From Podarcis vaucheri (Eukaryota), in NCBI GenBank assembly GCA_965113315.1, contig OZ220365.1: 64,000 nucleotides of DNA; one strand, given 5' to 3'. Under the pieces are notes generated by a model that was not told the origin of the DNA, did not search any database, and was given only the letters and a program-made list of their open reading frames with translations. The position numbers and the translations under genes were made by a program. Below are positions 712-58,506 of this stretch, one piece after another (the stretch's first letter is position 1; each line of letters opens with the position of its first letter).

Positions 712-1984
712 CGTGTGATGTGTGCAATGTCACACACACCACACACCAGGCCCCCTAAACATTGAGGGGGGCCACCCCCCTTTCAACTATCAAGGGGGCA
801 AAGACACTTTGGCCCCCTAAAGTTGGAGCAGTTACACAGATCACCCAGTCAGTCGCCCTCACTATGATGAGAGGGATTGCATTTCTATTTAAATTATCAT
901 AATTAGCTCTAAATTTGTATATTAATACATACATTAGCATACATACTTTTTTGGCAAATATTATATTGTGGGGAGAGTGATGACTTCGTTCTTTTTTATG
1001 GTAAGTGTGCACCCTAGGAATCACTGATTTCAGTGAATGCAAGAGCAACCATAATGAACAAAAATGTCACAAGGAGCTCGCATTTGCAGTGGCAAAAATA
1101 GTCAAATAACTTAAGAATTGGTTCATGGTAAAATACAGCACATTTTTCTTCTTTTTCTTATTTTTAACTGTATGTTTATAGAGTTGGACTTTCTCCCATG
1201 GTCCTGTTGCTGCTGCTGCTGCCAGGATTAAGCCATAGTTTTACTTGTGAGCCCAGTCTCATTCTACACAAATCACAAGCTATAGCTTACCAGTTGTGGT
1301 TTGTTTGAGGGGAAACAAAACACCAGCATGGGTTTGGCATGGCACTAAGCCTTGCCAAGGGAGCAGGACCAAGGGAGGAGTGAAAGGGCCACAAGGTTTT
1401 GCTCTGTGCATCAGAATGCTGACCCATTCACACTTCATTTGACTTAGCCTTAAGTGTGAGCCTGAATAAATAAATAAACCCAAGCAATAAGAGAATAGCC
1501 TTGTGGGTTGCATCTAATCCAACGTCCTGTTGTTTTTATGTTGCCCTGAATGAAGTTGGTCTCCTTGCCTGGTTGTTTTCATCTTCTTGTATTCATATAT
1601 GCACTCCCTCCATACATGAAACATTCCTTTCCTTGTTAGTCTCCAAAGCATTCCCTGACAGCTCTCTCCATTGTAAATTATTTAGGGTAATTATTATTAA
1701 TTTAATACTTGCTTATGTCAGCAGCAGAGTTGTTTTCAGCATACCCCAATAGTTAGCGATGATGATAGGATGGCAGATTTTACATGTCAAAGAGTATACT
1801 AAAAAGTTGTATGCATACAGCTGAATGAACTTCAGTAAGTCAGTGGTGCGCCTACTTTAATTACAAACCTTGAACAAAACAAAACTCTGTCCTGCCTCGA
1901 AGACAACCTCTGTGGTATCAAAGTCCCCAGATCCTCAATGTTTGAGGGTTTGTTGTAGTTCTCTGCTGAGGTTGAGAAAAATCA

Positions 1985-2370
1985 ATGCTACATAGGCACA
2001 GCTAGGAGTAGCAGAGCCTCCACCAAAGATCTCAACACACAGGCAGGTCAAAATGAGAAAAGATGCTCCTTTAGGTATTTCAGTCCCAAGTTGCTTTAGA
2101 GCTTTTGAAGTTAACACAAGCACCTTGAATTTGGCATATAAGCTTTTTGGCAACCAGTGTGGTTCTTCAAGAATTAGTGTTATATTCTACCAACAGGCCA
2201 TCCCACATAAAAGTCTAGCCACATACTATAGCAGGTGCAACTTCTGGACCATCTTGAAGGGCAGCCTACAGTCCGTTTTTGAAGTTACCTGTGCATACCT
2301 CACTGTACCCAGGCAAACCCAGTCCAAGAACACCCATAGCTGGCAAACCAGATAAAACTAGCAAAAGCTG
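1985..2370 (-). mobile_element. Old degenerate L2 fragment
   Basis: Minus-strand translation AKFKVLVLTSKALKQLG matches the L2 ORF2 C-terminal motif of the 9101 copy. Confidence 0.7.
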
Positions 2371-3574
2371 TGCATCATCTCAGAGACCACTTTGCCTGTA
2401 GCAACAGTGCTGGATCCAAACCCATCCAGTTCAAGCAGCCTCCTAAATTATTGCCTGACTACCAACATTAATTTGAAGTGCTAGGCTGGGCTACTTGAAG
2501 GGCCCTCTTATCCCACACAAACCTCCTTGAAACCTTCATTTTTCATTTGAAGTTCCTTATTATTTGAAGCTATTATTATTATTTGAAGTTGTTCTTTCAA
2601 TCTCTTACTAGCCCTCTAACATAAGGTCTCAGGGCAGGTGGCAACAATCTAGAATTCAGTGCCTAAAACAAGTCAAAACAAATTAAAGTCACCGGAATAG
2701 CGGTGGGGTCACCTGACGTAGGTGGTGACCCCAAGGAGGGGCTTCTCTGTGGATGTGGAATTCCCTCAGCAAAGAAACTCACCTGGATCCAAACTTAGGT
2801 GTCTTTTCATCAGTAGGCAAAGACTCTTCTGTTTCTCCAGGCATTTCAGCATACTGTATGGCACAGGGTGTGTGCCAGGGGTGCATTATTTTAAAACTTT
2901 TGCTGCAGTTTCCATCGTTTTTCTTGTTTTGCTTTTACAATTCCATTGCTTAGTTTTAAAATGCTACCCTTCCCCAAGAGTTCTGTCACCAAAAGCTGAC
3001 TTATAACTTGACTTGTAATATAATTAATAGCACCCATTTACATTAGTGTAGCTGTTTGGATAGAAGATGATAAGAAAACACTACAGAAGCAATCAAATTA
3101 AACATGAGAGTGAGCAACTGGAGGCAGGGAATAGACTCACCAGAGTAGTAGAAATTACAATAGTTCAGCCTGCAATCACTATATTTTATCACTAGAGGGA
3201 GATCATTCTTAGTACAGTACTCCTGTTTAAACCCATCAACTCTATGAAATGCACACACACAAATACTGCCTATTTGTCTGGTCACATTCAGAGACTGGTT
3301 TTCTATCTGTTCCCTTGATTTCCTCCAATTCTATTAATGAGCATGCCTGTGCATTTAGCAATATATGGAATGAAAAATGGGCAGGCTGCTTGCAAAGACA
3401 GGCAAGAGGAAGAATACAGAGCACAAGCAAGCTGAGGACAAATGTGTTGATTTATTCTCCTGATCTGATATGCAAATTTCAGTCTTGGCAGGTCACCCTT
3501 GCTGACTTAAAGGAGCCATTCAGTTGTGTCTCTACAGTCATGTTTATACATATCTTTGCAGGTAACATTCTATG

Positions 3575-4137
3575 TGTCCGGAACCCCTGTCCTACCTGGC
3601 AGGAAGTCAGTACCTCAAGTCTCGAGTCCAAAGTCAGTCCTCATGTCCAAACTGAGGCACAGACCCACAGAGGACCCAAGCTGAGGCCAATCCACAGGGG
3701 CAGTTGTACAGACACAGCCCCTCAGCTCTGCTTCCCTTTTGTACTTTGCATGCTGATTGCAGCACCTGGGCTTGATGGCGCATATGACCCTCACCTGTTC
3801 CAAGCCTACTTCAGCTGAAGAATCACACCCCTCCCTCCTCCCACAGCTAAGGAGCTGGGCTGTGGGCCCTTGCCTGCCTCGGCCTGCAAGAGTGCCACTC
3901 CCACTGTTCCCTATACCTCAGAGCCCACTGTGTTTGTGGAAACAGGGGACCCTCTGGCTCTGGTGATGGGTCCTGATGGTCTGGTTCCTGTGCACTGCCC
4001 CCCATCCCTCATCAACCTGTGAGTGCTTCTTAATCTCTCCTTCCCAATCCACAGCTTGCCCTGGTGTGTCCCAATCCCAGCTACACCCCTTCCTAGGATC
4101 TTCCTCCTCCTCCTTGTTGTCCTGCCAGTTTGTGACA
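3575..4137 (-). mobile_element. Solo LTR (Gypsy-like), older
   Basis: TGTC...GACA termini; flanks CTATG (3570-3574) and CTGTG (4138-4142) form a 5-bp TSD with one mismatch; purine-rich minus strand as in the 46663 LTR. Confidence 0.6.
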
Positions 4138-16263: not shown

Positions 16264-16807
16264 TAATTGACTGTCAACTACAGGTGTATTACAACTGGTA
16301 TTTGTCTGCAGTCCCACGAATGCTTACCCCAAATGGAGTGCCATTGACATCAGTGGCATCAGGTGCCACATTTGCGCGGACAGGCAGAGTCCCCAGATCC
16401 CGCGCAGTCCCCCCCCATCATGTGAAATAACGACTCATGACAACTTGCTATGGGATTAAATTGGCCACAACTTTATTAAATTTCAGATGTGGGTAGACCT
16501 TGGCTCAGGCATTGGGCGTTCTCCCTCCCCAGTCCCCAGCCGGGGACCTAGGGAGCATCAGGGTCATCCAGTGTGTGTGTGGGGGGGATGGACCGGCTCT
16601 GGAGAACATATGTTCAAGCAGAGATGGCCACCCCCGTTGCGCCGCCGCCGCAGGGGAGAGCAATGACGACCTTTCGGCGTACGGTCAAAGCCTCCCTTCA
16701 GAAACCCCTTTAACGGGGAACCCTGGTATCGCCACCTCAAAGAGGAAGATGGACTAAAGGATTCCGCCCAAGGCCTGATACCGCCAAAGTTGTGACGTTT
16801 TGCTACG

Positions 16808-16846
16808 GGAAAGGCGAAACCTGCCAATGCAGGGAAATTCCTTTCC
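16808..16846 (-). ncRNA. ENE-like U-rich internal-loop RNA hairpin (copy A)
   Basis: Minus strand GGAAAGG-AAUUUC-CCUGC-AUUG-GCAGG-UUUCG-CCUUUCC: 7-bp stem, U-rich loop on both strands, 5-bp stem. Confidence 0.6.
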
Positions 16847-16885
16847 GGCCCTTTAACAGCGACCTTAACGTAGCAGCGCCCGCAT

Positions 16886-16939
16886 ACCTGTGAAGAAAAG
16901 TTAACCTGCAAAACCTGTGAAGAAAAGTTAACCTGCAAA
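16886..16939. repeat. 27-bp tandem duplication inside copy A
   Basis: ACCTGTGAAGAAAAGTTAACCTGCAAA x2, exact. Confidence 0.95.
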
Positions 16940-18239
16940 TAAGACATTAACTGAGGGTGGGTAGGGTGGGAGAAGCTCTGGAGCCAAGTGAGGATTCCCA
17001 GGTAAGATCCTCCCTCTATTGTGTGGGCAGGTAATCCCTCCCCTACCTGGCCTGGTCTCCTTGGCAACGCTTCCCCCAGGTGGGATTGGACAACTGACTG
17101 GGGTAGGCGGAGACCTCCAGGTATCCCACCTGCGTCCACGCAAAGGGTGCCCCCCGTTTTAAGCGTGGAGCGGTCATTCTCTCCCAGTTTTCCCCTGACA
17201 AATAATATGTCTCTTTGTCAACGATGGCCCACAGAAGCACTTCAAAAATATTAATTGGTGGGGTGAGCACAAACATGGAAGAGTTAATTACTACACTGGA
17301 GTGAAGTGATTGTCCTTAGGGGAAGATGACCTGTCAAGCGATAAAACTCACAAACAGCGCCTCATGAATATAAACACGGTTCACAGCTGACAGGATTATT
17401 TCAATGAGAGACCTCCAGGTCAAAGTGGCAGAAGTGAAAGTTCCTCACCCCTCACCTCTACGCATCATCAGCTAAAAGTGTTAGGGGATCTTGGGAATCG
17501 AGTGGCAAGATTTTTGGCCCAACGCATATGAGTCAGCACCTATGTGACAGCCATATGCAGTCTCCAATCATTAAATGGGCTATTTCCCCCCCTCTCTCCA
17601 TATGAAGCAGTCTTTGTCAGTTTGACAAGTGACTTTGTACAGGGTCAGTAAGCAAAGCTTGTACTTGAGGGCCTCCTCTCCCTCCTCCCCACCTTCTTGC
17701 CAGCATTTGGCTGAATTTAAAAACAGAAGCACAACCATGCCATCCTTATGCCTTTCTAAACAGCTTTAAGAAGGCATTTATTCTTCCCCAAAACCACCGT
17801 GTTCAGGGCTGCATGAAAACATGCTATTCGTGATTTTATTAAATGCTATTTATTTTCCACACAACAGCAGGTAGACTACTCCCAGCAATGGTTTAAAAGT
17901 ACCTCCAAGACTGTTGAGAGAGTGGGTGGTGGGGTGACAGTCTTTTACACGGGTATTGCTCTTGACAGGAAGTTTTATCTGAAGAAAATGAAGCAATTTT
18001 GATTCCTATATCAAATTACCCTTTATCAATCATTTAATACCAGACTTCTAATGTGCAGAACTATTTATAAAAAGGGCAAACAAGACAGATTCTCAGGGCT
18101 TCCTGCAGTAGACCAACATATGAATTCTTACATGCTTTGAGAATTGGAATGCCCTTGGCCCAATGCATGAAATGCATATTCAGTTAGCAGGGGTATATAA
18201 ATGGGCTCTACTTCAAAAGCTTTGGCTCTTCCCTAAAGG

Positions 18240-18508: not shown

Positions 18509-19295
18509 TTGCGTGTTCAGACACAGAAACCTCCCCCTAAATAAATTCATACTTGTCTCAAAATTTGGTTTTGGTTTTTGGCAGAATTTAGGCCACAACT
18601 TTATTGATTACAGAAAGTGAATGGTTGCATAGGCTCTGGTTTGACTAGCTGCCTGCCATGCAGATAACACTGACCCAGGGTTCCAGCATAGGTCAGCCAA
18701 GGGTGAACATCTGGATAAGTGGAAAGCTGGGAACAGGCTATCTCCGCCACCCAAATGTCCCCCTGGACTCAGGCACAGGCACAACCCCCTCTCAGGGGTT
18801 GACCAAACCAAGTTGAGTCCCTGGATTCCTTTAATGGAATACCCTTCACATAGGGATGGCGAGAGCGTTCTCCCATCCCTATCACCTGAACCAGTACCTA
18901 TCCGCAACCTTACAAGTTGTGATGATTTGCTACGCAGCAGGTGAAACCCAAATGGCAACAGCCAATCTGCCAAGTGGGAAAATTCCTGCCGTGTCCCTGT
19001 CCCAATGACAGACGACGGCATAGCAAGGTCAAACGCATAAGCCCTAAAAATAGGGAGGGGTGGGCGGGTGTTCCAAATGCATGCACCAAAAGAAGAAGCT
19101 CTGGGTCACGTGCATGGGCATAAATAGGTCCCTCAATCCCTTTGGACTCTGCCCCATTGGCCCAATTGAACCCAGCATTGAGGGACCTCCAATCGGGTGT
19201 TGTGGCTGACCAATCAAACCCACCCACAACACAGGGTGTCAGTTTCCAGGTCTCACTGCAATATGTGCCCTCTTTAAAGGAGGACCCAATTTCCA
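18509..19295 (-). mobile_element. Non-coding retroelement terminal segment, copy B
   Basis: Same motif blocks as copy A; AATAAA at 18600-18605 (minus); CCAAT boxes and TATTTAT in the 5' part. Confidence 0.7.
18935..18991 (-). ncRNA. ENE-like U-rich internal-loop hairpin (copy B)
   Basis: CGGCAGG-AAUUUU-CCCA-cu-UGGCA-loop-UGCCA-uu-UGGG-UUUCA-CCUGCUG; stem sequences differ from copy A but still pair. Confidence 0.6.
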
Positions 19296-19298
19296 AAA

Positions 19299-20090
19299 CA
19301 GTGGTTCCTTGGTTCTCAAATTTAATCTGTTCCGGAAGTCTGTTCCAAAACCAAAGCGTTCCAAAACCAAGGTGCACTTTCCCAAAGAAAGTAAATGGAT
19401 TACTGTAAAATGGATTAATCCGTTCCAGACTTTTAAAAGCAACCCCTGAAACAGAAATTTAACATGAATTTTACTAACAAGACCATTGATCCATAAAACG
19501 AAAGCAATAATCAACGTTCTGTGCTATAAATTAAATAAGACAATATTGTAGATGATAAAAATTAAAATTAACTTTTTTTCTTACCTGCACTGATGATAAT
19601 CATTGTTTGGATGGGGGCTTTTATCCATTTCTGTGGTCACACAATCAATCAATCAATCAATCAATCATAAAACGAAAAACAAGCCATAGTCACAAAAATG
19701 AAAAAGCCACACAAACAAAAGCGCAGAAAATAGCAAAAACAAAAGCACTAAATATCACCTCAGAACACTGCAATCAGAAATGGAAGGCTTTAATTAAGGG
19801 GGGGGGACTTAAATTAGCTGTGAAAGGGTAAAAACTGGAGGAAAAAATCCTTAATTATGAAAGGGGGGACTTAAATGAGCTGCACAGGGGTAAAAACAGA
19901 AGGAAGGAAGCCTTAATTACAATTGGGGGGGGGACCTCAAATGAGCTGTGCAACAGTGAAAACGGAAGCTCAGGAGCACTTTCGGCTTCCAAGGCAAAGT
20001 TTGATAACCGGAACACCTACTTCCGGTTTAGCAGCGTTTGAGTTCTGAGTTGTTCGGGAACTAAGCTGTTTGAAAACCATGGTACCACTG
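19299..20090. mobile_element. Long Tigger-like non-autonomous DNA transposon with three internal ~60-bp repeats
   Basis: CAGTGGTTCCTTGG ... CCATGGTACCACTG-TA TIRs; TTAATTA..GGGGGGAC..AAAT(T/G)AGCTG x3 at about 19790-19970. Confidence 0.8.
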
Positions 20091-57989: not shown

Positions 57990-58506
57990 GTGACCTGTTT
58001 CCCCACAACTCCTCTCCAGTAGTGACAGGAGTTTTTTCTAATTGGCAAATTGGCACCAGCCTCTTGGTTTTTTTCGTCTACCTCGTAGCAATCGTCACAA
58101 CTTTCTTGGTATATGGCGGTTAGGTATTGGAATGTGGTGTTGATGTATGGAAGGGCAAGGTGTGGCCATTGCCTACCCCTTCACTTATGGGTATTCCGTT
58201 AAAGGAATCTGGTGGTCGTGGATCCTGTCTGATGCCCTGTGGCGGAGGGCCATGGCACGACCCTCGGTGACATCAGGGGGGAGCTTATAGTTGTATTTGC
58301 ATCAAAAGGCTCCCCCTACTGGTGGTTAACCCCTCATCAGGCTCATCCCTCTAGGAGTGGGTGGAGTCAAATTTGCTGTGGTCCAATGCCTAAGCCAATA
58401 CCTTCTCACATGCTGTAATCAATAAAGTTGTGACCTTTTCTAACCTAATATACTATGTCCACGTGTCTTCATTCCCCCAAGCGGGGATTGGGTCCTCGAA
58501 TCACAA
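57990..58506 (+). mobile_element. Non-coding retroelement terminal segment, copy C (older; 5' limit uncertain)
   Basis: CAGGAGTTTTTT..TTTTTTTCGTCT..CGTAGCAATCGTCACAACTTT and AATAAAGTTGTGACC (58421); ends ..TCACAA. Confidence 0.65.
58023..58083 (+). ncRNA. Degenerate ENE-like hairpin (copy C)
   Basis: AG-U6 / U7-CG internal loop; upper stem CUAA/UUGG plus GGC/GCC; lower stem only 4 of 7 paired. Confidence 0.4.

Follow-up and report, generated by a model that had tools for sequence, protein, structure and literature searches.

An RNA junction with an ENE-like hairpin lies ahead of the second B repeat in Ngaro-like retrotransposons of a lizard

Results

Two solo units with U-rich hairpins

The window is a stretch of 64,000 nucleotides from Podarcis vaucheri (assembly GCA_965113315.1, contig OZ220365.1), and the features considered here are two retrotransposon units, A and B, and a third, decayed copy:

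18509..19291, minus strand: unit B, a solo A-spacer-B unit of an Ngaro-like family, starting AAT and ending CACGCAA (ends taken from 30 family copies)
18509..18907, minus: B repeat of unit B, its start placed from full-length elements of related families
18600..18605, minus: AATAAA of unit B inside the conserved AATAAAGTTGTGGCC, a putative poly(A) signal
18914..18923, minus: conserved RUCACAACUU, whose first bases pair with an upstream UGAC (helix P0)
18927..18934, minus: 3' strand of helix P1 in unit B, CGUAGCAA, closing a three-way junction
18935..18991, minus: hairpin B (arm P3), a stem-loop with a U-rich internal loop (ENE-like), from folding and family comparison
18993..19016, minus: arm P2, a predicted hairpin, variable among families
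19019..19026, minus: 5' strand of helix P1 in unit B, UUGCUAUG
16372..17178, minus: unit A, a solo A-spacer-B unit of a younger family with full-length relatives
16472..16477, minus: AATAAA of unit A
16808..16846, minus: hairpin A, a short form with three U per strand, from folding
16869..16876, minus: 5' strand of P1 in unit A, with its partner at 16800-16807
58026..58501, plus: third copy, of another family, 5'-truncated and decayed, with CGTAGCAA at 58084-58091 and AATAAA at 58421-58426

Both hairpins are present on the minus strand and can fold as a preliminary description of this DNA had proposed, with AATAAA 329 nt away in B and 330 nt away in A. Hairpin B folds at -25.3 kcal/mol (z -4.2) and hairpin A at -17.2 kcal/mol (z -3.6). 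Their opposite strands are almost as stable (z -3.5 for B and -3.7 for A), so the strand is not set by energy alone. The near-fixed sequence said to follow the hairpin is indeed shared, with CGTAGCAA directly 3' of both (18927-18934 in B, 16800-16807 in A). The third copy has lost the fold (z 0.15); the form typical of its family has 6-7 U per strand. A loose ENE descriptor matches the window three times, where 20 shuffles average 1.15 matches and reach at most 4, and since a single match is thus within chance, the evidence rests on the family comparison described below. No Rfam covariance model among those scanned (ribozymes, SECIS, MALAT1 and others) matches the window at its gathering score, and none falls on either hairpin even at E values up to 5.

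Several other features accompany the units. A CCCACCC-type tract opens the spacer (16956-16969 and 19053-19067, minus strand), as it also does in the distant elements L201, L224, L232, L246 and L250. Acceptor-like pyrimidine-CAG tracts occur in the spacer at about 16885-16945 (minus) and are duplicated in family A, and a splice-donor-like AG/GTAAG lies about 30 nt after A1 in the full-length elements L103 and L105; no splice joints are seen in RNA reads over solo units A and B. A short element with inverted ends, resembling a MITE of the Tc1/mariner type, adjoins unit B at about 19298-20090 and attracts many RNA reads, which come from other copies.

The host is an Ngaro-like tyrosine-recombinase element

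Searches of the lizard's own genome (1.6 Gb; the best 40 of 1,503-3,634 candidates per query) return copies of units A and B of about 800 bp that start at or near AAT and end in CACGCAA, and no target-site duplication is seen around them. The pattern expected of an end-to-start junction in family A occurs at 12 places in the genome. In the family A elements L103 and L105, A1 (268 bp) is followed by an internal region of about 6.4 kb, B1 (410 bp), A2, a unique spacer of about 190 bp and B2. A family related to B is represented by eight loci (L313-L320), all of which have a B1/B2 pair and recombinase remains, and in six of the eight both A1/A2 and B1/B2 were found within the sequence examined, with repeats 98.6-100% identical. 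Split direct repeats in the order A1-ORFs-B1-A2-B2 are therefore present in two families, A and a relative of B; a search with one exact pattern found no B1-A2 junction for family B itself.

The internal region carries coding remains. The tyrosine recombinase matches PF00589 (E 4e-4) and has 318 homologues, the nearest named ones being from lizard (49-52%). Reverse transcriptase/RNase H remains match intact open reading frames containing RVT_1 (tblastn E down to 1e-47), with no direct Pfam match for the local pieces themselves. GDSL/SGNH-like remains are seen weakly in three elements (E about 0.002-0.003, below Pfam's cut-off), and no methyltransferase of the DIRS/PAT type is matched among the pieces and frames scanned. 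The host of the hairpins is an Ngaro-like tyrosine-recombinase retrotransposon with the layout A1-ORFs-B1-A2-spacer-B2, which matches the Ngaro descriptions in the available parts of PMC9210276 and PMC7192593. Xenopus DIRS-53_XT, an Ngaro-like member of the DIRS order, has the same A1/B1-A2-B2 arrangement together with RT/RNase H, tyrosine recombinase and an SGNH-type hydrolase (available text of PMC9210276).

The units in the window are solo leftovers (A, spacer and B) of such elements that inherited the fold. Judged by motif counts, solo A-spacer-B units (5,072 matches to a tail motif) far outnumber elements with B1 (484 matches to one pattern). Recombination between A1 and A2 could produce them, as could a two-junction circle resolved by the recombinase. 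SIRE of Trypanosoma cruzi VIPER is likewise short and dispersed and consists of A2, a unique spacer and B2, but its unique part is about 30 bp, according to the available text of PMC6681497, whereas the unique spacer here is about 160-190 bp and holds a folded domain.

The eight L313-L320 elements, about 7 kb long, have no open reading frame above 200 aa despite their near-identical repeats (98.6-100%), a combination that suggests recent mobilisation in trans. Copies of family A contain nested retroelements with gag and a zinc knuckle (L104:3270-4313, minus strand, and L109). Seven junction-bearing copies, L101, L107, L108, L111 and L112 among them, lie within about 2.7 Mb of contig C41, and most of the seven share a 127-bp tandem array. 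Another conserved element follows directly on the last open reading frame, at the start of B1, and consists of TTGGCGG, a short hairpin and TGGCGG. Its stem sequence varies with pairing kept, and it has 484 exact genome matches; it is seen in L283-L312 (at 1501-1540), in L103 and L105, and in L179, L180 and L184, and distant elements from metagenomes are similarly arranged. This element is a candidate replication signal, seemingly older than the U-rich loop.

A three-way junction kept by compensating changes

The 164 hits (155 distinct) formed 34 clusters by B-repeat sequence, and one real copy from each of 26 clusters was aligned, leaving out four family B singletons, the damaged F22 and F26, and the singletons F24 and F32. 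Unaided, RNAalifold returned a three-way junction of P1 (UUGCUAUG with CGUAGCAA), the variable arm P2 and the hairpin. The constancy of CGUAGCAA is accounted for by its pairing with the upstream UUGCUAUG, which closes the junction. Across 22 named pairs, 95.8% of cells are paired and six pairs are changed on both sides; none of 500 shuffles scored as high, and controls with the pairs slid out of register reached 30-61%. P1 and P0 show one-sided changes only. P1, the closing pairs of P2 and GUCACAAC are conserved in sequence.

The strongest signal comes from the 6-bp lower stem, in which 155 of 156 cells (99.4%) are paired among the 26 representatives. Ten cells carry double changes against 1.3 expected, a number that none of 500 shuffles reached, and on the B-repeat tree they amount to at least five independent events: U-A to A-U and U-A to C-G at one pair, and G-C to A-U at two others, with a fourth pair that varies between G-C, G-U and A-U. 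Several branches of this tree are long and unsure, and the clades with double changes are mostly well supported. G-U and U-G wobbles exceed A-C and C-A mismatches by 36 to 9, which favours the sense strand.

Compensatory change, first described between the lower stems of A and B, is seen among the 26 family representatives, with four of six pairs altered on both sides. A similar claim for the upper stem did not survive: the upper stems of A and B have no column-by-column alignment, that of A looks like a shortened, re-formed stem, and true compensatory substitution is accordingly established for the lower stem only. The loop is also less constant than proposed, in that AAUUUU/UUUCA belongs to B alone and A has AAUUUC/UUUCG. 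UUUCG occurs in 13 of 28 family copies and G-C at stem pair 2 in 14 of 28; the final A of the UUUCA in B and the U in its CCUGCUG look like CpG decay of this copy.

A set of 30 loci had come from a pattern that itself fixes the G-C pairs and U-runs (1,647 matches), so the test was repeated on 30 loci chosen by the tail motif alone. Of these, 27 have the stem and U-runs and 28 have the P1 partner; among 119 chance occurrences of the motif in viral contigs the figures are 0 and 8. The viral contigs, used as controls, hold what appear to be chance motif matches and one recombinase locus. A looser criterion, at least five of six stem pairs in any register, was discarded as uninformative, as 91 of the 119 controls pass it.

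Could the fold nevertheless be a neutral or chance feature of repeated sequence? The loose descriptor does match shuffled sequence about once per window, and the copies share ancestry. Neither point accounts for a 6-bp stem that has one unpaired cell in 156 and has undergone double changes with pairing preserved at least five times independently, in families whose B repeats are only 56-70% alike, and we regard this explanation as extremely improbable. The hairpin is a real fold under selection, kept by compensating changes across families, and the idea that selection acts on RNA structure across subfamilies is supported by the lower-stem double changes on at least five branches, unequalled in 500 shuffles.

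Matched U-runs in the internal loop

The hairpin consists of two stems separated by a U-rich internal loop, the upper stem having a median of at least three pairs in all 28 clusters. The U-runs on the two strands range from 2-3 up to 6-7, with 4-7 U in most clusters, and their lengths correlate across the 28 clusters (rho 0.81, uncorrected for kinship). At least three U stand on both strands in 135 of 152 copies; the short runs are found in family A (3/3), family B (4/3) and cluster F6 (2 on the 5' strand). Two positions part the U-runs from the stem: at the first, A faces G in all 28 clusters, and the second is A-C in 15, A-U in 11 and G-C in 2. G-C pairs beside the loop are present in 26 of 26 representatives (pair 82-139) and 24 of 26 (pair 83-138) in a sample selected in part by a pattern for these pairs, with two bases per strand intervening between them and the U-runs.

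Matched U-runs lying close to G-C pairs form part of the ENE descriptor (PMC7583470, in its available part; PMC13541005), and the ENE label appears to fit the hairpin in both shape and position. A genomic A-tract as the third strand, as in MALAT1, is not conserved across families: the sequence downstream is A-rich in some, and no such tract is present in family A. An Sm-site-like AAUUUUG was rejected as a general feature, since it occurs in some families only.

One hairpin per element, ahead of B2

The hairpin lies in the spacer, 20-30 nt ahead of the start of B2, and other sequence precedes B1. The tail motif that flanks it has 5,072 genome matches against 5 for a control. Among 30 loci chosen on a pre-B1 motif (484 genome matches), the tail motif was absent from the 300 nt upstream of B1 in all 30 and present downstream in 24, and in 23 of those 24 a B1/B2 pair was detected with the tail motif 20-40 nt before B2. 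When 30 loci were chosen instead on the AATAAA motif (3,217 matches), 22 had the tail motif upstream, and four of the eight that lacked it are B1 copies.

The distance from hairpin to AATAAA is 319-364 nt (5th-95th percentile; 143 of 155 copies measurable), with medians of 326 to 368.5 in 15 multi-copy clusters. Six of these medians fall within 326-329, which explains the agreement between A and B. The equal distances in the window are thus real, but a separately tuned spacing is not: the hairpin adjoins the start of B2 and AATAAA lies inside it, so spacing tracks B length, and a fixed spacing was rejected as a signal because it reflects how far into the B repeat AATAAA lies. The intervening sequence was rightly called barely alignable, as the B-repeat parts are 64% alike in a gapped alignment of family representatives, shuffles giving a mean of 57% and a maximum of 62%.

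A location within 20-30 nt of B2 might point to a domain that controls the choice of 3' end, favouring cleavage in B2 over B1, or that pauses reverse transcriptase at B2 for a template switch. Splice-acceptor-like tracts upstream in the spacer would be compatible with such a role, and priming and end restoration are described as unresolved for this order in the available part of PMC7192593. We nonetheless find it rather improbable: the domain is more than 300 nt from AATAAA, the matched U-runs are left unexplained, and pairing between the pre-B1 element and the spacer is no better than in shuffles. Such long-range pairing was rejected after 31-193 of 200 shuffles did at least as well in each of the 14 elements examined, out of 24 available.

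RNA reads and distant relatives

In four raw RNA runs, of which about 6-12% each was read, reads map to both units A and B, and over unit B one of the runs shows a strong strand bias. The reads are mostly 90-95% alike and so come from other copies, showing that relatives are transcribed. The AATAAA region is covered by 153 reads, and of their loose-end groups the 18 listed include no poly(A), several continuing into element sequence; given depth, tissues and passenger transcription of solo copies, the missing poly(A) ends are weak evidence.

Metagenome contigs supplied 80 related loci, 17 of which, with B1/B2 pairs, were folded. Spacer hairpins are present in these distant split-repeat elements, a U-rich internal loop before B2 in none of the 17, and AATAAA in B in one; the U-rich loop is therefore not general to Ngaro. 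The ENE descriptor matched twice in the 80 loci, neither time in a spacer.

Spacer hairpins that lack U-runs would also be expected if the junction marked the full-length RNA for recognition by a protein, in packaging or in the loading of reverse transcriptase, with the U-rich loop as a protein site. The same logic of position, before B2 and not B1, would apply; the sequences of P1, of the closing pairs of P2 and of GUCACAAC are conserved; and decayed genes beside 100% identical repeats suggest mobilisation in trans, which would require a signal in cis. A protein site would, however, tend to fix the size of the loop, and the U-runs here vary from 2 to 7, on both strands together. We consider this reading rather unlikely.

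Discussion

The conserved junction is probably a poly(A) clamp of the ENE type that protects only the full-length template RNA. The facing U-runs would grip the poly(A) tail of the same RNA in a triple helix of the ENE type, and the fold would keep deadenylation away from the replication template. Selection would act on the fold because an element's own RNA is the source of its copies. B1 and B2 would bear identical AATAAA signals, and a transcript ending in B1 would carry the genes and no hairpin; only a read-through transcript to B2 would have both the B1-A2 junction needed to rebuild the ends and the hairpin. A stability element solely before B2 would favour RNA that ends in B2, much as the Evade ENE stands before the 3' LTR. 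We assume that the model of end restoration built for DIRS-1 extends to these Ngaro elements; if ends are restored from the internal junction, the template must pass the AATAAA of B1 and end in B2. In the DIRS-1 models, the RNA lacks both ends, which are restored from an internal junction (PMC7192593, available part).

For this reading we observe the element type, the once-per-element site before B2, the conserved pairing and the matched U-runs. Counting against it are the short U-runs in some families, the invariant A-G opposition and the purine-pyrimidine position beside it, which part the U-runs from the G-C pairs, the distant elements that lack the loop and the reads that show no poly(A) ends. 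The presence of further helices and fixed motifs points to roles that an ENE alone would not cover. A clamp and a protein-recognition signal are compatible, and the junction may serve as both. We propose more tentatively, as something quite possible, that Ngaro elements of this vertebrate lineage resolve the clash between their two identical poly(A) signals with an ENE ahead of the second alone, its triple helix with poly(A) marking and protecting the template but not the shorter coding RNA.

The closest known structures are the single-domain ENE of KSHV PAN RNA and the transposon ENEs, which also have U-runs on both strands of an internal loop with G-C pairs nearby, and which also occur upstream of a poly(A) signal, the latter in a retroelement (PMC7583470, PMC13541005 and PMC12501189, in their available parts). 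Unlike the PAN ENE, the hairpin here is built into a three-way junction and has two extra bases per strand between the U-runs and the lower stem, and whereas PAN forms five U-A-U triples, some families here have U-runs down to 2-3. The host also differs from those of the PAN and transposon ENEs, being a tyrosine-recombinase element. The transposon ENEs reviewed in the available part of PMC7583470 come from plants, fungi, slime mould and stickleback retroviruses only. In Arabidopsis, the ENE of Evade (Copia93) protects the element's RNA and raises its mobility, and like the hairpin here it lies in the spacer between coding region and terminal repeat (PMC12501189, available text). On the same source, Evade belongs to the LTR elements and has four U-tracts and a single 3' repeat, while these elements have two identical B repeats and the fold before the second only. 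The ENEs of MALAT1 and MEN-beta share the U-rich internal loop but have a genomic A-rich tract (available part of PMC13541005); here no such tract is conserved downstream and no tRNA-like element is seen, which makes poly(A) the likelier third strand.

The literature searched yielded no report of an ENE in Ngaro or DIRS elements, the search having covered sources other than the original 2016 ENE survey and its supplementary list, and an earlier DIRS or Ngaro entry in that list of Tycowski, Shu and Steitz is possible. Nor did it yield an ENE for fish, zebrafish or vertebrate retrotransposons, an RNA structure for tyrosine-recombinase retrotransposons, or a spacer RNA structure in Ngaro-like elements (the last including the available text of PMC9210276). 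The fold would most likely be a new variant ENE.

A domain backed by covariation now sits exactly where the full-length RNA differs, and bears on how Ngaro and DIRS elements define and protect their template. If it is an ENE, it would bring a new order of animal retroelements into the range of transposon ENEs, as the first example from an animal's tyrosine-recombinase retrotransposon. Loops that naturally range from 2 to 7 U would then bear on how short a poly(A) clamp can be, and the thousands of solo units would scatter a cassette of ENE and poly(A) signal through the genome, able to stabilise host transcripts that end there.
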